A stretch of 32,000 nucleotides of DNA. It comes from Oscillospiraceae bacterium. Lineage in GTDB: Bacteria > Bacillota > Clostridia > Oscillospirales > Oscillospiraceae. A program made the position numbers and the translations under genes. Shown one piece after another: positions 855 to 31,967 of the stretch; the first letter of the stretch is position 1; the number at the start of each line of letters is the position of its first letter. The DNA is taken from contig CACYYN010000022.1 in NCBI GenBank assembly GCA_902778665.1, forward strand, positions 14,614 through 46,613, given 5' to 3'. Under the pieces are notes generated by a model, which worked only from the letters and a program-made list of their open reading frames with translations, did not search any database and had not been told where the DNA came from.

Positions 855-896
855 GATTCGCAGTACCCCATTTCATTACGGAAGGAGGTGAAATTA

Positions 897-1457
897 ATGA
901 CAGGTGTTATTCCAAATCCAAATCTGCCGCACAGCCAGCAAACGAATCATTCTGTTTTTACCATTACGCACGTTGGGGCAATAGATGACAACTTTGTTAA
1001 TTCCGTTATTAATATTGTCAACTCGTTTCAGACGATGCCAACAGAACTGATTCTTAGTATCAGCAGCGGTGGCGGACAAGTCATGCACGGAATCACTGCA
1101 TACAATTATTTGAAGAAACTTCCATGCGTTTTGCACACGCACAATATGGGCGAAGTCTCTTCAGCTGCAATTCTCCCATACTTGGCAGGTCAAATCCGAA
1201 CAGCTGACGCTGTATCCAAGTTCATGTTCCATCCTTTAACAATTGGGATAAATGCAGAAATGTCTTATCCCAAATTTCAAGAACTTCTTTCGATGCTGGA
1301 CAGAGACATTATCAACTATGCAGCAATAGTAGAAAGAGAAGCCCAGCAGCTCTGCAAAACTCATGATATCATGTCCGTATTAAAACATGATACTCTTGTA
1401 GTGACTGCCGCAGAAGGTCATGAACTTGGGCTTCTCAAAGACCCGGTTGCACTCTGA
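897..1457 (+). CDS. ClpP-fold (S14-like) serine protease, 186 aa
   Basis: GGAAGGAGGTG lies 8 nt upstream of the ATG at 897. SISSGGGQVMHGITAYNYL resembles the ClpP INSPGG motif. GEVSSAAILPYLAG supplies the Ser position, FMFHPL the His position, and KHDTLVVTAAEGHELGLLKD the Asp position plus the C-terminal GL-hydrophobic-D motif. Confidence 0.75.
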   Translation: MTGVIPNPNLPHSQQTNHSVFTITHVGAIDDNFVNSVINIVNSFQTMPTELILSISSGGGQVMHGITAYNYLKKLPCVLHTHNMGEVSSAAILPYLAGQIRTADAVSKFMFHPLTIGINAEMSYPKFQELLSMLDRDIINYAAIVEREAQQLCKTHDIMSVLKHDTLVVTAAEGHELGLLKDPVAL

Positions 1458-1565
1458 TTTGTCATTCTTATTTTCAGACGTGCTAAATTGTGTCCTAACA
1501 GGCTGTTCAATCTTTTTAAGAACAGCCTGAATTTCTTCTTCTGTTCCTTCAATAATCAGCTTCAT
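1380..1565 (-). CDS. Hypothetical 61-aa ORF, possibly a remnant
   Basis: It has a strong RBS (GGAGGT, 5 nt, ATG). However, it overlaps the 3' end of the convergent protease gene by 78 nt and contains the 1499-1529 hairpin. Confidence 0.35.
   Translation of the reverse strand: MKLIIEGTEEEIQAVLKKIEQPVRTQFSTSENKNDKSECNRVFEKPKFMTFCGSHYKSIMF
1499..1529 (+). terminator. 10-bp perfect hairpin (caggctgttc / gaacagcctg) 42 nt after the protease stop
   Basis: The stem was read directly. It is followed by aatttcttcttctgtt, which is only moderately T-rich. Confidence 0.4.
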
Positions 1566-1640
1566 TTCAACCTCCGGAAACGATATATGCTATGGCATTA
1601 ATAATTATTGACGTGACATAATAAAAGATTACTTTAAACT

Positions 1641-1859
1641 TCAATCGGTTGCCGTTTTGTGATGGATAAATTCTTTGTAACCCTCGACACAATCAAGGTT
1701 TTCGTCAGCGATAAAAACTGCGGCAGTGATTACGTCTGCGGCATTCCACAATGTCTGACAAACACCGTGGAACTGCACTTTTGCGGTTTCAATTGCCGTG
1801 ATGCCTTCGGCATGAATCGAGTATACACCGTTGATAACTTTAATAATTGCGTATTTCAT
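1641..1859 (-). CDS. Hypothetical phage protein downstream of the tail fibre, 72 aa
   Basis: GGAGGG lies 6 nt upstream of the ATG, directly after the fibre stop. Confidence 0.6.
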   Translation of the reverse strand: MKYAIIKVINGVYSIHAEGITAIETAKVQFHGVCQTLWNAADVITAAVFIADENLDCVEGYKEFIHHKTATD

Positions 1860-1873
1860 TTTTAGCCCTCCAT

Positions 1874-3637
1874 TTATGCTGTGTAATAATAACGTACTTT
1901 TAGCCCTGTTATAATCTGATTAGGCGCACCAATAACATATGCGCCTTGTGCGGTTATAGATATTGCCGCAACAGGGTCTAATGATGTCCAAGTCAAAAAC
2001 ATTGCCAAAACAACAATTTTATCTTGTGGTGCATATGACGATATATTAGCAAACCCTTGAGCGTTTAATGTTATATCTCCAACAGTTACATCAACATAAC
2101 CACGCATCAAAATATCTGATAATGCGTTATTAGAATATACTAAATTACTGTTTGTATATGTTGCCCCGTTTGCGATGTTATTTATTGCGACATAAAAACC
2201 GTCTGCTAATGTACTGTGTCCCGTCAAATATAACGCAGTGCCGTAATTGATTCGGCTACCGGTATTATTTGTATTACCGTATACCACTAACGCAAGATTA
2301 TTTTCCAAGGAGTTTAAAGAACCCTTTAACTCACTCAGTTCCTCGCCGACAGAATCCGCAGTGTGTGTCGCAAGCGTATCGTCATAGCCGATATTTTCAG
2401 CTGTCAAGGTGCGGTTTGCTGACAGATTCAATCCGTTGATCGTGCGCGTATTTGGGACCTTCCCAGCCTGTAGTTCGTTGGCCGCTTCAGTAAGATTTGT
2501 CGCTGAAAACGTAGAGTCAAGACTTCCAACGCCGACCTTTGCCGAAATAATCCTGTTCTGTACCGGGTTGGCAGAAGTCGTAGACAATGCACTGTCTACA
2601 GCACTGCTCATTCCTCGCCAGTCATAAGTCCCTCCGGCAGTGGAAATGCAGATGTACATGATACCGCCAGTCTTGTCAAAGTACAGCTGGTTGACTTGGC
2701 CGACAGTTGCTGTTGTAGGAGCTCCGTAGTCCTGGATGATCAGCGGAACATCTCCAGCAGATCCGGAAACGCCAATGCCAGCGACAGAGGAAACAGCGCC
2801 GGTCCCGTTGGCACCGTTATAGACCTGGATCTGTGACGTATCACCATCGTTGTATGTGATGGTATACACATCTATCGTTCCGGCAGCATGGGTACCGGAT
2901 GTCTGCGTAAAGGAAACAATGCTGCGGCCGTTCGTCACAGTAAAGGTGTGCGTTTCCCCGTTGCCCATAGTGACGGTATAGGTGTCAACCAGACCAGCCG
3001 TGCTTGTCTTGACAATACTCTCGATCTCGCTGCCATTCGTCACTGTGAAAGTTGTGGTTGTTCCGTTACTCATGGTGACCGTGTAGGTGTCTACCAAACC
3101 GCTGGTCCCGGTCTTCGCAATGCCGGTGATAGATGTGCCGGTGTCTCCAGTATCACCTTTATCACCATATACACCCTGCACCGCCGGCGTCGTTGACGAA
3201 GAGGTCCCATCAGTATATGTGTACCGTGTATAGTGCCACAGATACTTATAGGTTGCCGTCAGTGTTTGCGGTGTTGTCTGCCATGACTGAGGTGTGGTAC
3301 TGCCTGATGTACTTACCGCCCAGTATTCGGTGATGCTTGAAACATTCTCACCATCTCTGACGGTAAGCGTTGATGTTGTGCCGTCGTTGTAGGTAATCGT
3401 GACCGTTGTCACCTTGCCGGATTTACTGGATGTAAGATTACTGATACTCCGTCCGTTCGTGACGGTAAACGTGCTGGTGGTAGCATCAGAGAATGTGATC
3501 GTGTAGGTGTCCACCAGTGCGCTTGTGCCAGTCTTTTCAATTGTCTGGATTCCACCGTGACCATCTGCGAAAGATAGCAGCCAGTTCTCCAAGATCTGCC
3601 CGGTTAGCTTTTTTGCTACTGCACCCTGCTCCAGCAC
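1874..3637 (-). CDS. Tail fibre / receptor-binding protein. The true 5' end is probably near 3700.
   Basis: It contains five ~32-aa repeats of the type KTGTSGLVDTYTVTMSNGTTTTFTVTNG, a short collagen-like GDKGDTGDTG stretch, and a KYLWHYTRYTYTDGT motif. It sits after the other tail genes. Confidence 0.8.
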   Translation of the reverse strand: MLEQGAVAKKLTGQILENWLLSFADGHGGIQTIEKTGTSALVDTYTITFSDATTSTFTVTNGRSISNLTSSKSGKVTTVTITYNDGTTSTLTVRDGENVSSITEYWAVSTSGSTTPQSWQTTPQTLTATYKYLWHYTRYTYTDGTSSSTTPAVQGVYGDKGDTGDTGTSITGIAKTGTSGLVDTYTVTMSNGTTTTFTVTNGSEIESIVKTSTAGLVDTYTVTMGNGETHTFTVTNGRSIVSFTQTSGTHAAGTIDVYTITYNDGDTSQIQVYNGANGTGAVSSVAGIGVSGSAGDVPLIIQDYGAPTTATVGQVNQLYFDKTGGIMYICISTAGGTYDWRGMSSAVDSALSTTSANPVQNRIISAKVGVGSLDSTFSATNLTEAANELQAGKVPNTRTINGLNLSANRTLTAENIGYDDTLATHTADSVGEELSELKGSLNSLENNLALVVYGNTNNTGSRINYGTALYLTGHSTLADGFYVAINNIANGATYTNSNLVYSNNALSDILMRGYVDVTVGDITLNAQGFANISSYAPQDKIVVLAMFLTWTSLDPVAAISITAQGAYVIGAPNQIITGLKVRYYYTA

Positions 3638-17567: not shown

Positions 17568-17729
17568 ATGAAAATTTTCACTTTAATCGTTTTCATCGCA
17601 TCAATCATAAGCAACATCATCAATGGTATCCGACACGGATTCGATGCTTTTGATATTGTTGTCACCGGCCTCAACGTCATTGCACTCGGATTGAATGCCG
17701 CCGTATTGATCAGAGACAGGAGAAAGTAA
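17568..17729 (+). CDS. Small two-TM membrane protein, 53 aa (below the ORF-track cutoff)
   Basis: My translation is MKIFTLIVFIASIISNIINGIRHGFDAFDIVVTGLNVIALGLNAAVLIRDRRK. A GGAG lies upstream. The stop is 1 nt before the next ATG. Confidence 0.5.
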   Translation: MKIFTLIVFIASIISNIINGIRHGFDAFDIVVTGLNVIALGLNAAVLIRDRRK

Positions 17730-17730
17730 C

Positions 17731-17913
17731 ATGAGCAAAACATCTACAGCTGTCAAGCGCAAGTACAACGAGAAGACTTATTCCCGCTTCTATGCCGATA
17801 TCAAGAAAGAAGACTTTGAAGCCATCGAACAGGCACGCGGTGAAATGAGCCGGGCACAGTTCCTGCTGATGCTCTTCCGTGAATATCAGAAGCAAACAGA
17901 AACAGAGGGTTGA
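17731..17913 (+). CDS. Arc/CopG-like ribbon-helix-helix protein, 60 aa
   Basis: AGGAGAAAG lies upstream of the ATG. AVKRKYNEKTYSRFYADIKKEDFEAIEQARGEMSRAQFLLMLFREY fits the Arc-family pattern common in Firmicutes mobile elements. Confidence 0.6.
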   Translation: MSKTSTAVKRKYNEKTYSRFYADIKKEDFEAIEQARGEMSRAQFLLMLFREYQKQTETEG

Positions 17914-17989: not shown

Positions 17990-18391
17990 TTATGTGAGGC
18001 CGAGATAATCGGCCACCAGATACACGAAAGACCTGTTCCAGCGGAGCGCTGTGCAGTAATCCACATGCAGCACATGCGCAGCGCCCTGCATGTTATGGGT
18101 CTTCTTGAAGTATGTCATCTCAATCAGCCTGCAGTGCAGCTCTCCGTCCGGCATGCGTCTTGTCTTCCGGAGCGCCCTCTCCACGGCATCAAAACGCTCC
18201 TGATCACGCGGCGGCAGCTGGCGGATGGCAATAGCTTCCGTCTTTCGCTGTGTCTTTCCTCCGCCGCCTGTCTTGCTGTATCCCGGTGTGATCTGCTGGC
18301 TTCTGAGTTGCCGGAGCTCGGCTTTATACTGCGGATACTTCCGGATCACATTCTTCACATATCCCCACCAGGGCTCTCTCGGTTTGCTCAT
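17990..18391 (-). CDS. RinA/ArpU-like late transcriptional activator, 133 aa
   Basis: The C-terminal sequence LIEMTYFKKTHNMQGAAHVLHVDYCTALRWNRSFVYLVADYLGL is sigma-region-4/HTH-like. It is the last gene before the late operon. Confidence 0.6.
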   Translation of the reverse strand: MSKPREPWWGYVKNVIRKYPQYKAELRQLRSQQITPGYSKTGGGGKTQRKTEAIAIRQLPPRDQERFDAVERALRKTRRMPDGELHCRLIEMTYFKKTHNMQGAAHVLHVDYCTALRWNRSFVYLVADYLGLT

Positions 18392-19185
18392 GTCTTCTTC
18401 CTCCCCGGTTTCTTAGGCAGGACAACCTGCCCGCCTCTGACCGCAGGCCGTTCTTTCAGCTTGCAGCGCATGTACTTGCTGATCAGCACGCCGTCCTCAT
18501 CACGGCACTCCTCCACGTCCATAATGGTGCTTCCGTAATCCGGCTGCATGTCCTCCATGTCCATCACCTCCACGGGCTCGGTGTAGATCGGTCTGTCCAT
18601 GCCCCGGCAGCAACTCCACTTGTTCTCCCCTGCAGGCCTGTCATGCACGTTTTCCATCATGTAGGCTGCCATATCGGAGTGATCGATGCGACCGTCGATG
18701 CCTTCCATCTTGAAGGTCCCCGGGCCTCCGAAGTTCTCCCAGATTGATCTGGCAAGTTCCAGCGCATCAGCCGGTAAAATCATGTGATGATGCAGACGGG
18801 CAGGCGCATTCTTGTGCGGGCTCCAGTTTGCCGTCACCCAGATCGCTTTCAGACTCTTTTCTGTGTGGCTTTTATACGCCTTCCGAAGTTTTGATTGGAA
18901 CAGCTTCAGCATCTCTTTTGCCTGCTCATAATCGAAGTCTGCCGGATAATGACCGCTGTCGTAGGCAAGGGTGCAGAACATGTCGCCGGCATCGAAGTTA
19001 CAGTTGATCACCCGGGCGAGATTTCTTTCACTGCTCTTTTCGTTTGCCCGGATCTTTTTCTCACTGGAAGTGCCGGCTCTTCTGGCCCCCCTGGGTTTTG
19101 TATAATCGTTATTCATGGGAAACCATGACCGCTTTGTTTCCACAACGCGGCCGGATATGATTTTGTACTCCATGAGCTTCCTCAT
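18388..19185 (-). CDS. Putative HUH-type rolling-circle replication initiator (Rep-like), 265 aa
   Basis: It has ordered motifs: FCTLAYD (motif-1-like), RLHHHMIL (HUH-like) and MAAYMMENV (a Tyr candidate). The RBS is GAAGGAGGGAG. The family assignment is tentative. Confidence 0.45.
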   Translation of the reverse strand: MRKLMEYKIISGRVVETKRSWFPMNNDYTKPRGARRAGTSSEKKIRANEKSSERNLARVINCNFDAGDMFCTLAYDSGHYPADFDYEQAKEMLKLFQSKLRKAYKSHTEKSLKAIWVTANWSPHKNAPARLHHHMILPADALELARSIWENFGGPGTFKMEGIDGRIDHSDMAAYMMENVHDRPAGENKWSCCRGMDRPIYTEPVEVMDMEDMQPDYGSTIMDVEECRDEDGVLISKYMRCKLKERPAVRGGQVVLPKKPGRKKT

Positions 19186-19232
19186 ACTCCCTCCTTCAGT
19201 CTGATTCTAATGTTAGCCGCTAAAAGGTCTTC

Positions 19233-19260
19233 ATAGATACGCGTGCGCGCGCGTATCTAT
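19233..19260. repeat. 28-bp inverted repeat atagatacgcg-tgcgcg-cgcgtatctat with an alternating CG core, 48 bp upstream of the Rep-like gene
   Basis: Read directly from the sequence. The arms are 11 bp and perfect. Confidence 0.7.
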
Positions 19261-19295
19261 ATAAAGAAGATCTTTCAGTTTTCAAGGTTCACTTG

Positions 19296-19344
19296 AGGCC
19301 CTCAGACAGCAGCACCAGATTTCTGATGCCGTTACCTCAAAGTC
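19296..19344 (+). repeat. Left copy of the 49-bp direct repeat flanking the NYN cassette
   Basis: It matches 20276-20324 at 47/49 positions. The offset is exactly 980 bp. Confidence 0.9.
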
Positions 19345-19381
19345 CCATGAGTATTGTTAATGGAAAATTCTTATACACTAC

Positions 19382-19411
19382 TTGACGCGATGAAGAAATC
19401 TATGATATATT
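19382..19411 (+). promoter_or_regulatory. SigmaA-type promoter, TTGACG-18-TATATT, with a TGa extended -10
   Basis: The hexamers were read directly. It lies ~145 nt upstream of the NYN ATG. Confidence 0.6.
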
Positions 19412-19557
19412 TTGTCTGCAGGTAGAAATACACTGCATACTCGCTTTTGCGAGGGGCTATTAAAGCCTTTATTGCTAAACAGGCTCTTGGTAGTAAGCGC
19501 TCCACCATAAGGAGATTGCTGAATCCTCGGGCCTTATTTGTTAGAAAGGGGTTTTCA

Positions 19558-20229
19558 ATGATACGCACAGCAATTCTTGTTGATGGTGGGTTCTATAGGA
19601 AACGGGCTAAAAACTTATGGGGCGAATTAACTGCTGAAGCAAGAGCAAAAGAACTTGTTGCATATTGTCAAGCCCATATTCACAGTAGTTCAAAAGATGA
19701 ATCAATCCGTCTATACCGCGTGTTCTATTATGACTGTGAGCCTATAGGACGCCGGAGTGTTTACCATCCTCTTCGCCAGGAAAACGTTGACCTCGATAAA
19801 TCTGAAACGTACACCTGGTCAACTGCGTTTCTGGAAGAACTGAAAAAAAAGAGAAAATTCGCTCTTCGGCTTGGGCATTTATCAGACCAAATGAACTATA
19901 ATTTAAAGCCTGAAGTAACTAAAGCTCTTCTATCTGGGAAAAGAAGTATCGAAAGTCTCACAGATAAGGATTTCGTATTTAATATTCAGCAAAAAGGCGT
20001 GGATATGAAAATAGGTGTTGACATTGCCTCTCTTGCCTATAAAAAGCAGGTTGATCAGATTATTTTAATAGCCGGAGACAGTGATTTTGTCCCTGCTGCA
20101 AAACTTGCCCGCCGTGAAGGAATCGACTTTATCTTAGATCCAATGGGTGTTATGATAAGAGATGATTTATTTGAACACATTGATGGTCTGAAATCCCATT
20201 GGCGAAATCAGTCTAAGGTTTCTGAATAA
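19558..20229 (+). CDS. NYN-domain (LabA/PIN-like) predicted ribonuclease, 223 aa
   Basis: The start is set at MIRTAILVDGGFY, preceded by GAAAGGGG. KGVDMKIGVDIASLAYKKQVDQIILIAGDSDFVPAAKLARREGIDF is the classic C-terminal NYN motif with its acidic residues. Confidence 0.8.
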   Translation: MIRTAILVDGGFYRKRAKNLWGELTAEARAKELVAYCQAHIHSSSKDESIRLYRVFYYDCEPIGRRSVYHPLRQENVDLDKSETYTWSTAFLEELKKKRKFALRLGHLSDQMNYNLKPEVTKALLSGKRSIESLTDKDFVFNIQQKGVDMKIGVDIASLAYKKQVDQIILIAGDSDFVPAAKLARREGIDFILDPMGVMIRDDLFEHIDGLKSHWRNQSKVSE

Positions 20230-20246
20230 TTGACTATTTCCCCATG

Positions 20247-20269
20247 CCGCCCGCCAGGGCGGTTTTTTT
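20247..20269 (+). terminator. Rho-independent terminator of the NYN cassette
   Basis: The hairpin is ccgccc-gcca-gggcgg, followed by T7. Confidence 0.85.
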
Positions 20270-20275
20270 GTCCAA

Positions 20276-20324
20276 AGGCTCTCAGACAGCAGCACCAGAT
20301 TTCTGATGCCGTTGCCTCAAAGTC
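20276..20324 (+). repeat. Right copy of the 49-bp direct repeat flanking the NYN cassette
   Basis: It matches 19296-19344 at 47/49 positions. Confidence 0.9.
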
Positions 20325-20333
20325 TCTTTATGA

Positions 20334-20852
20334 TCAGTGCATTGCGTTGCATGTCAGTACCATCCAGGCCTGCAGATCATCCGTTGCGCTTATCGGAGCA
20401 AACAGGGCCGTCACAAACATGCCTTCTTTTGCAATGATCTTACTTTCTCCTGTCTCCGGCATGGTCCTCATAAACAGCTGCATCTGGTCAGAATAGATGG
20501 GCTGCAGATATCGCTCCGGCAATACAAAGCACTTCCCGCTCACATGAAGGATGGAGAATATTGTGCCGTTGAACAGTATGCCGTTATCGTCGATCACGAT
20601 CGGGATATCTGTCCGATCATCCGGAGACAGATCCCACGACTTCGGGAGTGTTTCCTCTTGTGTGAACCAGCTCTCTTTCTTCTCAGGCTTTACACCGAAT
20701 GTAAAGAGCAGTGAATCAACAGAAAACGACGGCAGCCCGCTCAGCTCATAACAGGAAAAATCATCCCCTGCCCATTGCGGACCTTTGTTACTTGAATACA
20801 GCACCAGCATCTTTCGCTTGGCCAACACAGAACTAAGCTTTTTGAAATTCAT
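20334..20852 (-). CDS. Hypothetical phage protein, 172 aa
   Basis: The start is moved to MNFKKLSS, which has a GGAGAG RBS. I recognised no motif. Confidence 0.55.
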   Translation of the reverse strand: MNFKKLSSVLAKRKMLVLYSSNKGPQWAGDDFSCYELSGLPSFSVDSLLFTFGVKPEKKESWFTQEETLPKSWDLSPDDRTDIPIVIDDNGILFNGTIFSILHVSGKCFVLPERYLQPIYSDQMQLFMRTMPETGESKIIAKEGMFVTALFAPISATDDLQAWMVLTCNAMH

Positions 20853-29907: not shown

Positions 29908-31086
29908 ATGGGCAGGAGGGCAAAATACAAGGCCCGGCCGGACGGGCTGCGGGAGACCACAAAAAGCTATAAGGATTTCGGGCCTTCCCGGTATACCGGC
30001 CGGAAGCACTTCTACGGGCACAGCGATGACGAGGTCGATGCGAAGATCGAGGCCTTTGAGAAGGCGATGAAGTCCGCCCCGGAGAAGAAGGCCCGCTCCT
30101 TCGGAAAGGTCGCCGGTGACTGGTGGCAGGAGAAGGAGCCGACGCTCTCCCCGAATTCCGTCTGCGGATACCGGACGGCCCTGCACCGGGCTGACGAGGA
30201 ATTCGGCAGCATCCCCATCGACGAGATCACCCCGCAGCAGTGCATTGCCTACCTGAAGCGGTTTGCCGCCCAGGGCTACAGCATGAAGGTGATCACGAAC
30301 ACCAAGATCGTGCTGAAAGGGATTCTTGACCATGCGTTCGCCGACGGTGATATCAACAGCAACCCCTGTGCCAATCTGCCGCCGATCAAGGGAGCCGGGA
30401 AAAAGAAACGGCACGCAGCTGAGGATGAGGACATCCAGATTATTGAGCAGACGAAGACGCAGAGCCTATTCGCAAGGATGAGCTACTTCATGCTGTACAC
30501 CGGATGCCGGCGGGGCGAGGCAGCTGCCCTGCAGCAGAAGAACATCGACCGGGAAAAGAAAAAGGCCCGCATCGTGCAGGCGATCGCATACAGCGACACA
30601 AGAAAGCCCCAGCTCAAGCTGCCGAAGAGTGAGGCAGGGTTCCGGGAGATCGATCTCTATGACAATGTGCTGGAGATCCTGCCGGAGTATGAGGATCCGG
30701 AGACCTATGTCTTCTTCCCGGACGGTCTGCCGACGAAGACCTATCTGGAAGCCGGCCTGAAGAAATATCAGGAAGACAACGGCATCCGGGCAACCGCCCA
30801 CCAGCTCCGTCACAGCTATGCCAGCATGCTGCACTCCGCCGGCATCGACGTGAAGGATGCGCAGCATCTTCTCGGGCACAGCACCATCGCCATGACGCAG
30901 GATGTATACACCGAGATCGAGAAGGCGCACGGCAGCGAGATCCGGGAGACGGTGAACGCCTTCATCCAGGACAGGAAGCTGAACAAAGAGAAAAAGACCT
31001 GCCCCGAATGCGGGAGCAGGTATGTGAAAGCACCTGACGGGCATGTGTTTACCTACTGCCCGGACTGCGGTGCAAAACTGGTTTAA
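29908..31086 (+). CDS. int: Tyrosine integrase with a C-terminal zinc ribbon, 392 aa
   Basis: AGGAGGTG lies upstream of the ATG. The catalytic set is TGCRRGE, HQLRHSYAS, LLGHS and QDVYTE. The tail is CPECGSRYVKAPDGHVFTYCPDCG. Confidence 0.95.
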   Translation: MGRRAKYKARPDGLRETTKSYKDFGPSRYTGRKHFYGHSDDEVDAKIEAFEKAMKSAPEKKARSFGKVAGDWWQEKEPTLSPNSVCGYRTALHRADEEFGSIPIDEITPQQCIAYLKRFAAQGYSMKVITNTKIVLKGILDHAFADGDINSNPCANLPPIKGAGKKKRHAAEDEDIQIIEQTKTQSLFARMSYFMLYTGCRRGEAAALQQKNIDREKKKARIVQAIAYSDTRKPQLKLPKSEAGFREIDLYDNVLEILPEYEDPETYVFFPDGLPTKTYLEAGLKKYQEDNGIRATAHQLRHSYASMLHSAGIDVKDAQHLLGHSTIAMTQDVYTEIEKAHGSEIRETVNAFIQDRKLNKEKKTCPECGSRYVKAPDGHVFTYCPDCGAKLV

Positions 31087-31221: not shown

Positions 31222-31367
31222 CTGCTCCGTGATCTCTCTGCTCTGCCGACCTGATCCGGAGAATTTGATAAAACCGGTATTGCTTTTTACCGTCAGATGG
31301 TGATATGATACGAGAAAGGGCAAATCAGGTTGCCCGTTCTGATTTAATAGTACAGGAGGTCTCAGCA

Positions 31368-31967
31368 ATGGTCATCACCATAAGCAGAGAATACGGCGCA
31401 GGCGGACACTCCATCGGCAAAAGCGTTGCGAAAGAACTCGGCATTGAGTTTTACGACCGGGATATCATCAAGGCAGCGGTAAAAGAGAGCGGCCTTGATC
31501 TGCCTGAGGTGGAACGTGTAGAAGAAGAGCTCACCCGCACCGGAATATTCCTGCGGATGATTTCTCCCGCTGCCTATGTGGATGAACAGCACACCGTTCA
31601 TGCAATTGAGCAGCGCGTCATAGTGGAGCTGGCTTTGAAGGAATCTTGTGTCATCCTCGGCAGATGTGCAGACGATATTCTTGAGAAAGCAAATATCCCC
31701 TGTCTGAATGTTTTTCTGTACGCCAGTGACATCCACCGGGCAGCCCGTGTCGGTGAGCTGATCGGCAGTAAGAATCCCACGGAAATTCAGAAGAAAATGC
31801 AGAAGACCGATGCCGCCCGTCGTACCTTCTATGAGCAGTTCACAGGAAAACACTGGGGCGACAGCCGCAATTATACGCTTTCACTGGACACCGGGTTTCT
31901 GGGCTACGACACCTGTATACAGCTGATCTGTGAAGCTGCCCGCAAAGCCGACGCTTTCCAGATCTGA
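31368..31967 (+). CDS. Cytidylate-kinase-like family protein (host gene), 199 aa
   Basis: The start is at MVITISREYGAGGHSIGKSVAKELGIEFYDRDII, preceded by AGGAGG. The N-terminal P-loop-like motif is typical of this family. Confidence 0.75.
   Translation: MVITISREYGAGGHSIGKSVAKELGIEFYDRDIIKAAVKESGLDLPEVERVEEELTRTGIFLRMISPAAYVDEQHTVHAIEQRVIVELALKESCVILGRCADDILEKANIPCLNVFLYASDIHRAARVGELIGSKNPTEIQKKMQKTDAARRTFYEQFTGKHWGDSRNYTLSLDTGFLGYDTCIQLICEAARKADAFQI

Follow-up and report, generated by a model that had tools for sequence, protein, structure and literature searches.

The segment between positions 19296 and 20324 of the window (the entire 32,000-nucleotide stretch of DNA that we analysed) carries an accessory gene of an ordinary kind, and what is unusual is its junction: the 49-bp direct repeats at its ends are two copies of a conserved, undescribed hairpin of ~52 nt. 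We estimate a probability of about 70% for the full explanation that we favor, in which an autonomous moron, antisense to the phage genes and bracketed by the duplicated hairpin, entered by hairpin-based recombination and encodes an RNase that benefits the lysogen. As read from its sequence, the cassette is an autonomous unit, consisting of a putative promoter, a leader, a predicted RNase that retains its acidic active-site residues, and a predicted terminator. It lies in an integrated Clostridia prophage, where its slot is a hotspot for cargo that separates the last early gene from a Rep-RinA module. The hairpin, which is single-copy in relatives and directly precedes the Rep control region, marks the position at which the cargo differs between phages.

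We recomputed the repeat, which an earlier note on this DNA had described, and found its copies at 19296-19344 and 20276-20324, offset by 980 bp and identical at 47 of 49 positions, with mismatches at 19300 and 19334. The 33-mer common to both copies occurs exactly twice in the window and not at all in 100 shuffles. The order proposed for the interior (promoter, leader, 223-aa NYN ORF, terminator) also stands. A pattern scan returned the near-consensus promoter on the plus strand at 19382-19411, with TTGACG, an 18-nt spacer and TG-n-TATATT (10/12 matches, extended -10 TG), and the GC-stem terminator with seven Ts is present on the same strand at 20246-20273, where a 7-bp stem with 6 GC pairs is followed by TTTTTTT. 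The cassette has a GC content of 40.5%, close to the ~40% counted by hand and compared with 48.6% for the whole window; the ~58% given for the neighboring Rep-like gene was too high, the computed value being 53.8%. The NYN gene is also not the only plus-strand gene, as had been thought: two small genes at 17568-17913 and the prophage integrase (392 aa, 29908-31086) are likewise on the plus strand. The host element is a prophage of a gut or rumen bacterium.

The genes around the slot are on the minus strand. The last gene upstream, before the junction, encodes a 172-aa protein (20334-20852; called in L002). Downstream of the slot lies an HUH-type Rep-like gene (18388-19185) that matches phrog_3584, 'replication initiation protein', with E = 7e-41. 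Its score against PF23343 (25.8 bits) is below the cut-off of 27.8, and the HUH motifs FCTLAY, HHHMIL and AAYMM are visible in its sequence. It is followed by a RinA-family activator (17990-18391; TIGR01636, 32.3 bits versus a cut-off of 31.9). Upstream of Rep, a control region (19233-19285, minus strand) carries an ACCTTGA(A/C)A motif and a palindrome that are kept in all Rep relatives. A -35-like TTGAAA (19285-19280) and a -10-like TATATA (19263-19258) are separated here by a 16-nt spacer, and the -10-like box overlaps the palindrome, which is GC-rich and 28 bp long (19233-19260). These boxes may form a promoter, which is absent from the listing of our promoter scan.

The repeated 49 bp correspond to columns 5-55 of our hairpin alignment and the hairpin itself to columns 3-56, and both end-points of the duplication are within 1-2 nt of the hairpin base. 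Copy A (19295-19347, minus strand) contains the repeat at 19296-19344 and adjoins Rep; it occupies the ancestral position and is the orthologue of the single-copy element in all relatives. Copy B (20275-20327, minus strand) is the extra one. It contains the repeat at 20276-20324 and is located 9 nt past the stop codon of the 172-aa gene. Scored with a covariance model of the element (R1), copy A reaches 55.8 bits on the minus strand and 9.9 bits, a partial match, on the plus strand; the corresponding values for copy B are 64.6 and 23.8 bits. By our own reading of the alignment, the two differences between A and B both keep wobble pairing on the minus strand. Across 23 variants the hairpin has 18 pairs, 12 of them with compensatory changes, and 98.5% of the alignment cells are paired; none of 500 shuffles is as good, and slid controls reach at most 52%. 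G-U wobbles number 40 on the minus strand versus 4 on the plus strand, and the hairpin folds better on the strand of the phage genes. Its stem spans about two helical turns, with conserved internal mismatches and outer arms, free inner stems and variable loop sequences. In the ~30 related phage loci that we examined, the element lies a short way upstream of Rep, once in every relative and twice only in the window and in L032, a second NYN phage from another sample; unrelated NYN loci have no copy. R1 detected no further copies in the 32-kb window, and the window contained no family at the gathering score of Rfam, from which the hairpin is absent. A role as intrinsic terminator, which calls for a GC stem plus a U tract, was rejected because there is no U tract: neither copy is followed by a T run on either strand.

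Comparison with related phages confirms the insertion. An empty site with a single 49-mer had been predicted, and we found it in five relatives (L027, L014/L030, L043, L044 and L045). Removing the cassette and one repeat copy restores the junction of L027, with 2 differences in ~160 nt, and copy B matches the single element of L027 over the 49-bp repeat. In the empty-site relatives, homologues of the 172-aa gene directly abut the single hairpin. The cassette is missing from the same site in related phages, as expected of the self-contained moron that the earlier note had envisaged. That note had left open recombination or target duplication. Insertion holds, but a target duplication of the transposition type does not, the repeat being a duplicated conserved junction element. 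A conserved repeat element had also been named as a finding that would speak against the cassette idea; the repeat is such an element, yet it is found together with a true insertion. In L032 the same hairpin-NYN-hairpin layout recurs with different stems, and the cassette keeps its promoter and terminator, in a phage only ~75% identical to that of the window. An arm-like relic seen by eye beside the L032 hairpin A' scores only 4 bits with R1; this is not significant, and we thus do not count the relic as evidence.

An exact search of IMG/VR with the 33-mer gave no match, and scans of the same database for close relatives with the Rep and 172-aa proteins found none; to recover relatives there, a profile of Rep homologues was required. 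A 21-mer of the hairpin core hit 17 metagenomic loci, only three of which are Rep-linked (L017, L027 and L030, the last on the contig of L014); we set aside the other 14 as chance matches because they have neither a Rep homologue nor an R1 match. In a blastn search of the region against phages and plasmids, only the conserved C-terminal part of the NYN coding sequence was matched. The Logan contig L001 stops at 19330, 1 base before the first 31-mer common to both copies, which is the expected branch point of the second copy if the assembly used k = 31 (an assumed value).

Among relatives, the slot 5' of the hairpin is either empty or holds an Xer-like recombinase, HicAB, DUF3800, Lar or DUF6275, or NYN. 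HicAB is found in reversed orientation, as is DUF3800, which comes with a DUF3800-VIII RNA (L056). The recombinase (NF040815, 229 bits versus a cut-off of 220) has a stop codon that overlaps the hairpin in L003, L008-L013 and L042; L055 also has such a gene in the slot, and the window has none there. Depending on the phage pair, the type of hairpin goes with either the upstream module or Rep, which indicates breakpoints on both sides of the hairpin. A search of sister phages gave no second hairpin next to their recombinase or HicAB cargo, and the duplication is therefore not a general by-product of cargo gain.

The cassette's sole ORF with a family match (19558-20229, plus strand) encodes the 223-aa NYN/LabA-like predicted ribonuclease. 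The domain assignment proposed earlier was borne out by Pfam NYN (PF01936, E = 6e-11; 43.5 bits versus a cut-off of 24.2), with a match that spans residues 130-190 only; the score for TIGR00288 (27.3 bits) is far below the cut-off of 178. Over its full length the protein belongs to phrog_5783 (E = 1.4e-86), a family of unknown function for which our literature search found no published study. Asp-9, Asp-149, Asp-155, Asp-174 and Asp-176, representing the N-terminal Asp, the central Asp and the acidic residues of the GDSD motif, are invariant in 30 homologues. When an AF2 model (pLDDT 81) was compared with known structures for a PIN-like alpha/beta fold, Foldseek gave only unrelated folds in the PDB (best E 7.5e-3, none at E <= 1e-3), and sequence, profile and fold searches found no NYN structure there. 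In BFVD, matches 2 and 3 to the model, which are the named ones in the top three, are NYN and LabA-like viral proteins (E = 8.4e-4 and 1.2e-3, TM 0.40 for both).

At least 8000 homologues of the phrog_5783 type were found, and the best 120 are 73-100% identical to the window protein; as far as we know, such conservation is not usual among defence genes that evolve fast. Of 5426 complete E. coli genomes, 275 (O157:H7 among them) carry a near-identical copy of the E. coli homologue, and homologues occur in 48 Stx2a phage records. In the lambdoid E. coli phage 2B8 the gene sits directly after cI and before N, the interval in which lambda carries rexAB. Other homologues are located between repressor and integrase (Javan85, L069), beside toxin-antitoxin genes (L037, phiE202), on conjugative plasmids and, in some cases, between housekeeping genes (CutC/NT5C, near TrmE). 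PADLOC returned domain-level matches, to PDLC01154 NYN (E = 5.5e-7) and to HEC-09 (E = 1e-4), both confined to residues 143-202, and no full-length match to a defence protein model. The view that a stand-alone NYN defence gene is not a described system has to be revised: there is an earlier description of such a single-gene candidate, HEC-09, which failed to protect when tested (bioRxiv 10.1101/2024.01.29.577857). HEC-09 is, like the window protein, a stand-alone NYN-domain protein proposed to act in RNase-based defence; their similarity is only domain-level (E = 1e-4, residues 143-185), and HEC-09 has an N-terminal HTH-like domain, whereas phrog_5783 has another N-terminal half and a dedicated leader RNA.

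The statement that the NYN gene has no visible partner does not take account of the 145-nt leader RNA that precedes it, which is conserved and structured. The first part (19411-19478, plus strand) forms two small hairpins and scores 33.6 bits with Rfam DUF3800-I (RF02969), below the gathering score of 44.2. Only its first stem-loop is a close match, resembling the DUF3800-I 5' hairpin almost base for base, and the central 42-nt insert of the motif is missing. L032 shares this part of the leader, as do the chromosomal homologues L071, L074 and L076. The second part (19478-19546, plus strand), directly before the ribosome-binding site, shares the architecture of TEG147 (RF03535): a hairpin with an AGUA/GAA internal loop of the sarcin-ricin type and a U-rich tail. 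TEG147 scores are 32.0 for the window, 30.1 for L032, 36.2 for a Dorea phage and 52.6 bits for Javan85, all below the gathering score of 56.1. RNAalifold of 10 NYN leaders gave 15 pairs, 11 of them with compensatory changes, and a TEG147-like hairpin is found upstream of 7 of 7 aligned Firmicute homologues and, as judged by eye, of most proteobacterial ones examined. Teg147 is listed as a genuine S. aureus sRNA of ~60 nt (PMC5826253), where it is expressed from a genomic island (PMC3053349), and DUF3800-I RNA has been linked to DUF3800 genes (PMC5737381). Neither RNA has a reported link to NYN genes in the papers that we examined.

What the hairpin does can be read in several ways. It may tentatively be seen as an RNA element, acting as a processing, stabilizing or insulating site on read-through phage transcripts in the manner of T7 RNase III sites or lambda sib, with the second copy kept to terminate or cut transcripts of the early operon that would otherwise continue antisense through NYN. 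This reading concerns hairpin function and is compatible with our preferred explanation of the cassette. The wobble asymmetry favors folding on the sense strand of the phage genes, although it would equally fit single-stranded DNA; the two-turn stem with its conserved internal mismatches also speaks for the RNA reading, as does the location of the element where the upstream gene or the recombinase gene ends. In L032 the two copies have diverged in sequence but both still fold, which implies that each is under selection. However, the missing U tract argues against an intrinsic terminator, HicAB phages have no co-directional gene that ends at the hairpin, and the element has no Rfam entry. By comparison, we consider it unlikely that the hairpin serves as a site for structure-specific recombination or nicking, into which a fold-recognizing enzyme would have integrated a 980-nt circle of cassette plus one hairpin. 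Candidates for this enzyme would be the Xer-like tyrosine recombinase of sister phages or the adjacent HUH Rep, and models are integron attC cassettes, the folded attP of CTX phage, and release between two rolling-circle origins, since two such origins in direct repeat would release the intervening segment as a circle. Like an integron cassette, ours is a single promoter-distal ORF bounded by imperfect hairpins, with a preferred folding strand, conserved structure and ends and a variable interior, and a tyrosine recombinase adjoins the site in sister phages; the strand-specific fold with its conserved mismatches, the HUH motifs of Rep, the recombinase stop codon that overlaps the hairpin, the duplication end-points at the hairpin base and the two intact L032 hairpins with different stems would fit such a site. 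Yet the locus has no cassette array and the cassette has its own promoter. The hairpin ends on the folding strand read GAGACTTTGAG ... CTGAGAGCCTC, and we rejected an attC identity by its R''/R' boxes (RYYYAAC ... GTTRRRY), as GTTRRRY is absent from both strands. An IntI-type integrase was rejected as well: the sister-phage recombinase is Xer-like and scores 66.7 bits with TIGR02249, far below the cut-off of 265. The window slot lacks the recombinase gene, the hairpin is also present in all phages without it, and recombinase and HicAB cargo are not hairpin-flanked. As for rolling-circle origins and the folded CTX-phage attP, the likeness is a strand-specific hairpin in non-coding DNA directly upstream of an HUH Rep gene, and the conserved arm motif T(T/C)TGA(G/A) / CTTGAGA recalls CTTGATA, the nick site of pC194 and phiX174. 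But the loop sequences vary, unlike typical Rep nick loops, the host is a tailed prophage with an integrase of its own, and two active origins in direct repeat should destabilize the cassette, although the layout persists in two phages of ~75% identity. An extension of this idea, in which the hairpin is a phage-borne, integron-like cassette exchanger with the Rep or Xer-like enzyme capturing, exchanging and releasing single-gene cassettes at a fixed junction, appears quite unlikely; its cargo would be NYN, DUF3800, HicAB and the recombinase itself, and the window would represent a captured cassette with both sites intact.

That the repeat is a transposon or IS target-site duplication, or an assembly artefact, is highly improbable. 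Direct repeats around an inserted segment in metagenome assembly data could suggest either. We found no transposase and no terminal inverted repeats in the cassette, and the repeated unit is a pre-existing conserved element; we know of no target duplication approaching 49 bp in length. An artefact is unlikely because L032, an independent assembly of another sample, has the same layout with non-identical hairpins, which a graph artefact could not produce. Together, these points effectively refute both. A separate question is whether NYN and its leader form a type III-like RNA-protein toxin-antitoxin or abortive-infection pair. In this view the leader would build up as an sRNA that stops at the TEG147-like terminator hairpin and holds back the RNase until infection disturbs it. 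ToxIN, a type III system found on phages and plasmids, consists of a promoter, a structured RNA, a terminator and an endoribonuclease gene. The predicted layout of the NYN cassette resembles this order, a terminator-like hairpin and U tract lying ahead of the RNase gene, and NYN homologues likewise reside on phages and plasmids. The sarcin-ricin-type loop is of a protein-binding kind, the hairpin co-occurs with NYN genes from Firmicutes to Proteobacteria, Teg147 is an established sRNA, and the L056 slot holds DUF3800 with its own dedicated RNA motif. Against this, TRF found no tandem repeats in 19200-20400 that could correspond to the tandem antitoxin repeats of ToxIN, NYN has another fold and is unrelated to ToxN/AbiQ, its toxicity is hypothetical, the window scores for both Rfam families are under their gathering scores, and the leader hairpin may be a mere attenuator or autoregulatory cleavage site. 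Such a pair seems improbable.

For the moron with a duplicated hairpin, the explanation that we prefer, we propose that the cassette entered, and may leave, by recombination using the hairpin and not by transposition. Entry could have occurred by unequal crossover between two element-carrying phages, or by a Campbell-type crossover of a hairpin-bearing circle. Because the copies are identical at 47 of 49 positions, they could recombine with each other, and this would delete the cassette precisely to leave an empty site of the L027 type. The end-points at the hairpin base and the L032 layout with different stems hint at a hairpin-directed mechanism instead of plain homologous or illegitimate recombination. 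The NYN gene would be transcribed from the lysogen, gated by the terminator-like leader hairpin, and its product would act as an RNase to the benefit of the lysogen, most plausibly by excluding superinfecting phages or by abortive infection. Defence is a plausible role. The domain-level PADLOC matches, the lack of protection by HEC-09, the homologues among housekeeping genes and the 73-100% identity are observations that stand against it. With morons and exclusion genes such as lambda rexAB the cassette shares the promoter-gene-terminator unit, a site that is empty in relatives, deviant GC content and an orientation opposed to the lytic genes; it differs in encoding an uncharacterized NYN predicted RNase and in being bracketed by two structured junction elements, for which we know of no parallel among morons.

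The locus would be no more than an ordinary moron if the hairpin turned out just to stabilize RNA passively and NYN lacked a phenotype. Phrog_5783 nevertheless represents a large, conserved and uncharacterized NYN family and, since its members sit where prophages keep exclusion genes, it makes a concrete candidate for a new role in immunity by RNase or in RNA control, for which a tractable E. coli orthologue exists. The leader, shared across phyla, connects TEG147, an orphan Rfam family, with a protein partner, and our findings suggest that prophage cargo of this kind also includes the orphan DUF3800 RNA motifs. The hairpin at the junction, an element so far undescribed, shows strong covariation and lies on a mosaic boundary of the phage. 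The mechanisms that act at such boundaries in temperate phages are poorly understood, and the hairpin might account for the exchange of cargo at one fixed position.

We compared the window with related phage contigs reached through homologues of its Rep protein. In five relatives (L027, L014/L030, L043, L044 and L045) the site is empty, and a homologue of the 172-aa gene (window 20334-20852, minus strand) is followed by a single hairpin element and then by Rep (18388-19185, minus strand), giving the single-copy site that the earlier note had proposed to look for. The closest of them, L027, has a Rep 96% identical to that of the window and a single hairpin identical to copy B over the 49-bp repeat; its junction is the window without the cassette and one copy, save for two differences in ~160 nt, and is thus the simple junction predicted in the earlier note. 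The NYN cassette is a genuine insertion, a moron in a cargo hotspot, and as such a known kind of feature. All details previously described for the repeat were reproduced: the copies lie at 19296-19344 and 20276-20324, offset by exactly 980 bp and identical at 47 of 49 positions, with mismatches at 19300 and 19334. A 33-mer common to both copies occurs twice in the window and in none of 100 shuffles. Between the copies we found, again as described, a TG-extended promoter-like site (TTGACG-18-TATATT, 19382-19411), a leader of ~145 nt, the 223-aa NYN ORF (19558-20229) and a terminator with a GC stem and T7 (20246-20273). The GC content is 40.5% for the cassette, close to the ~40% first counted, 53.8% for the Rep gene, for which ~58% had been too high, and 48.6% for the whole window. 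The NYN gene had been called the only plus-strand gene in a long minus-strand block, yet two small genes at 17568-17913, encoding proteins of 53 aa (hydrophobic) and 60 aa between the RinA and HNH/terminase genes, also lie on the plus strand, opposite to the phage genes, as does a 392-aa phage integrase (29908-31086) at the right end. The two small genes are conserved in the relatives L005 and L009, and a reversed HicA/HicB pair occupies the equivalent position in the relative L004, so that this position looks like a second cargo slot. Host-like cytidylate-kinase-family (31305-31967, plus strand) and Clp-protease (888-1457, plus strand) genes lie outside the two prophage ends, indicating that the window spans a complete integrated prophage.

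In every relative, homology upstream of Rep starts exactly at GAGACTTTGAG, the edge of the 49-mer. We aligned 23 variants of the junction element as a ~52-nt imperfect hairpin of 18 pairs, 12 of which show compensatory changes. Pairing reaches 98.5% of cells compared with 80% in shuffles, none of 500 attaining the observed value, and a slid-partner control gave at most 52%. A G-G mismatch is retained, as are two motifs, TTTGA(G/A) and (C/T)TGAGA. The fold is strand-specific and favors the phage-gene (window minus) strand, on which 406 of 412 cells are paired (370 of 412 on the other strand) and 40 G-U wobbles are found, as opposed to 4. Folding energies of the two window copies are -26.1 and -22.6 kcal/mol for the minus strand but -15.7 and -10.3 kcal/mol for the plus strand, and both substitutions between copies A and B retain a wobble pair on the minus strand. 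With R1, the covariance model built for this hairpin, the window gives two hits and no more, each on the minus strand; every relative gives one, except L032 with two, and unrelated NYN loci and chance 21-mer loci give none. The repeat is a pre-existing conserved structured element, present as a single copy in relatives, and we therefore rejected the target duplication offered in the earlier note. The hairpin is followed, at a distance of 0-25 nt, by a conserved -35-like motif, ACCTTGA(A/C)A, and a GC-rich palindrome; the genes of an HUH-type Rep and a RinA-family activator come next. The hairpin lacks a U tract, and an Rfam search gave no match to it. An RNA role as a processing or insulator site would fit the wobble asymmetry. 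In the window, the 28-bp palindrome (ATAGATACGCG...CGCGTATCTAT, 19233-19260) overlaps a -10-like box, and a 25-nt block, GACCTTTTAGCG(G/T)CTAACATTAGAA (minus strand, 19205-19229), lies ahead of the ribosome-binding site of Rep; closer Rep relatives keep the block almost unchanged, and distant ones have it in recognizable form with several substitutions. Together, palindrome and block may form an operator or origin. The hexamer TAGCGT resembles CS-6, a motif of the single-strand origin ssoA.

L032, a second phage carrying NYN, stems from another sample and encodes an NYN protein 89% identical to ours in a region with ~75% DNA identity to the window. There, NYN occupies the same slot in reverse orientation, again between two hairpins. 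The stems of these hairpins differ from each other but are internally compensated; one hairpin is similar to that linked to Rep in L044, the other to its counterpart in L045 and L042. This independent layout led us to reject an assembly artefact, and the compensated stems argue that both copies are selected to fold. In addition, the Logan contig L001 (ERR3224597) stops at window position 19330, one base before the first 31-mer common to the repeat copies. If its assembly used k = 31, as we assume, this is the branch point expected with both copies present, and a second assembler thereby lends the duplication indirect support. Homology between L032 and the window stops at position 20326, precisely where copy B has its outer edge. 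The comparison suggests either an old arrangement, with the window copies homogenized on an L027-like backbone, or a hairpin-bounded cassette moving between phages. Between hairpin A' and the NYN promoter of L032 (~2024-2085), a 5'-arm-like GAACTTTTTGAG and a 3'-arm-like CCTGAGAATCTC may be relics of earlier hairpin recombination; R1 gives them no significant score.

Directly 5' of the junction hairpin, some relatives have no cargo, and others carry Lar, DUF6275 proteins, a HicA/HicB pair that is reversed and has a terminator of its own, or a co-directional tyrosine recombinase of the Xer family (NF040815, 'XerA / integron integrase', 229 bits, above cut-off). The recombinase (328 aa; L003 3855-4841) is also found in L008, L010-L013, L042 and L055, and in L003, L008-L013 and L042 the hairpin shares its first bases with the stop codon of this gene. 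In the IMG/VR relative L056, the slot holds a reversed DUF3800 gene (1043-2002, minus strand) with a DUF3800-VIII RNA in its 5' region (1894-1959, minus strand; 67.5 bits, gathering score 40.2), which puts an orphan Rfam motif together with its partner protein into a prophage cargo slot, in parallel to NYN and its leader. The hairpin type tracks the upstream module in some pairs, across two Rep lineages (recombinase-type in L003 and L008, 172-aa-type in L027, L014 and L043), and Rep in others (L042/L045, L044/L032), which places recombination breakpoints on both sides of the hairpin.

We infer that the simplest route to the duplication would be a single unequal or illegitimate crossover between an empty-site phage and one carrying NYN beside a hairpin, as HicAB is placed in L004; alternatively, a circle bearing one hairpin could have entered by a Campbell-type crossover. 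In the alignment, the duplication spans columns 5-55 and the hairpin columns 3-56, a near-complete overlap. End-points at the hairpin base would also fit a structure-directed mechanism, as would the two-hairpin layout seen again in L032, a fold specific to one strand, and the neighboring HUH Rep and Xer-like recombinase. However, attC boxes and an IntI-type integrase are absent, the loops are not conserved and the two-copy layout has persisted, and we consider such a mechanism unlikely. A search around recombinase or HicAB cargo found no second hairpin. An RNA role of the hairpin is compatible with either duplication route. A junction hairpin duplicated around cargo, with strong covariation, is undescribed and represents a new point.

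The NYN assignment in the earlier note is borne out by Pfam NYN (43.5 bits, cut-off 24.2), with the alignment confined to residues 130-190, and the five aspartates expected in the active site are invariant in 30 homologues. Over its full length the protein belongs to phrog_5783 (function unknown; E = 1.4e-86). An AF2 model (pLDDT 81) has an alpha/beta core with inserted beta-hairpins. PDB searches by fold and by sequence returned no match; the best BFVD match by fold is unnamed (E = 8.1e-6, TM 0.47), and those ranked second and third are viral proteins with the names NYN and LabA-like (E = 8.4e-4 and 1.2e-3, TM 0.40). NYN domain membership is thus assigned from profile and motifs. At least 8000 homologues were found, all significant, the best 120 being 73-100% identical. 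Some lie between repressor and integrase (Streptococcus phage Javan85, L069), beside ImmA, an MNT/HEPN-like pair and integrase (L037), next to a toxin-antitoxin pair and integrase (Burkholderia phage phiE202), on conjugative plasmids of Campylobacter and Xanthomonas and, in rumen bacteria, between housekeeping genes. In the lambdoid Escherichia phage 2B8 (L082 2178-3858), a 42%-identical homologue directly follows cI, after a terminator-like hairpin, and precedes N, the position in which lambda carries rexAB. Near-identical copies of the 2B8 gene occur in 275 of 5426 complete E. coli genomes, O157:H7 included, annotated merely as 'NYN domain-containing protein', and 48 Stx2a-converting phage records contain homologues. 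C4 antisense RNA and isrK-type immunity RNAs, scoring above their Rfam gathering scores, adjoin homologues in Moraxella phage Mcat4 (L081 2339-2539) and a Xanthomonas plasmid (L080 754-845), a further link of the family to phage immunity regions. PADLOC gave domain-level matches only, and HEC-09, a single-gene NYN candidate defence, did not protect in tests (bioRxiv 10.1101/2024.01.29.577857).

All seven aligned Firmicute homologues have a conserved hairpin with an AGUA/GAA internal loop and a U-rich tail in the ~60 nt ahead of the ribosome-binding site. By eye, the same architecture precedes homologues in Dorea, Streptococcus, Xanthomonas, Moraxella and Burkholderia elements; the E. coli leader has a similar terminator-like hairpin in which the loop is not obvious, and in the Campylobacter plasmid leader the motif is not clearly present. 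RNAalifold of 10 leaders gave 15 pairs, with compensatory changes in 11. The hairpin is a diverged relative of Rfam TEG147 (Javan85 52.6, Dorea phage 36.2, window 32.0 and L032 30.1 bits; gathering score 56.1), a family derived from a ~60-nt S. aureus genomic-island sRNA (PMC5826253, PMC3053349) in which a sarcin-ricin motif has been noted (PMC13085918). The first leader hairpin is also similar to the one at the 5' end of the orphan DUF3800-I motif (PMC5737381; 33.6 bits, under the gathering score). The leader region contains no tandem repeats. Given this conserved terminator-like hairpin, NYN expression is probably gated by the leader RNA, which may bind protein; attenuation, autoregulatory cleavage and a type III-like RNA partner are the options. 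As a tentative best guess (probability roughly 0.4), we infer that the NYN protein may act in exclusion or abortive infection, expressed from the lysogen. A large, uncharacterized NYN family with a dedicated leader RNA, located in exclusion-gene slots, is a new point.
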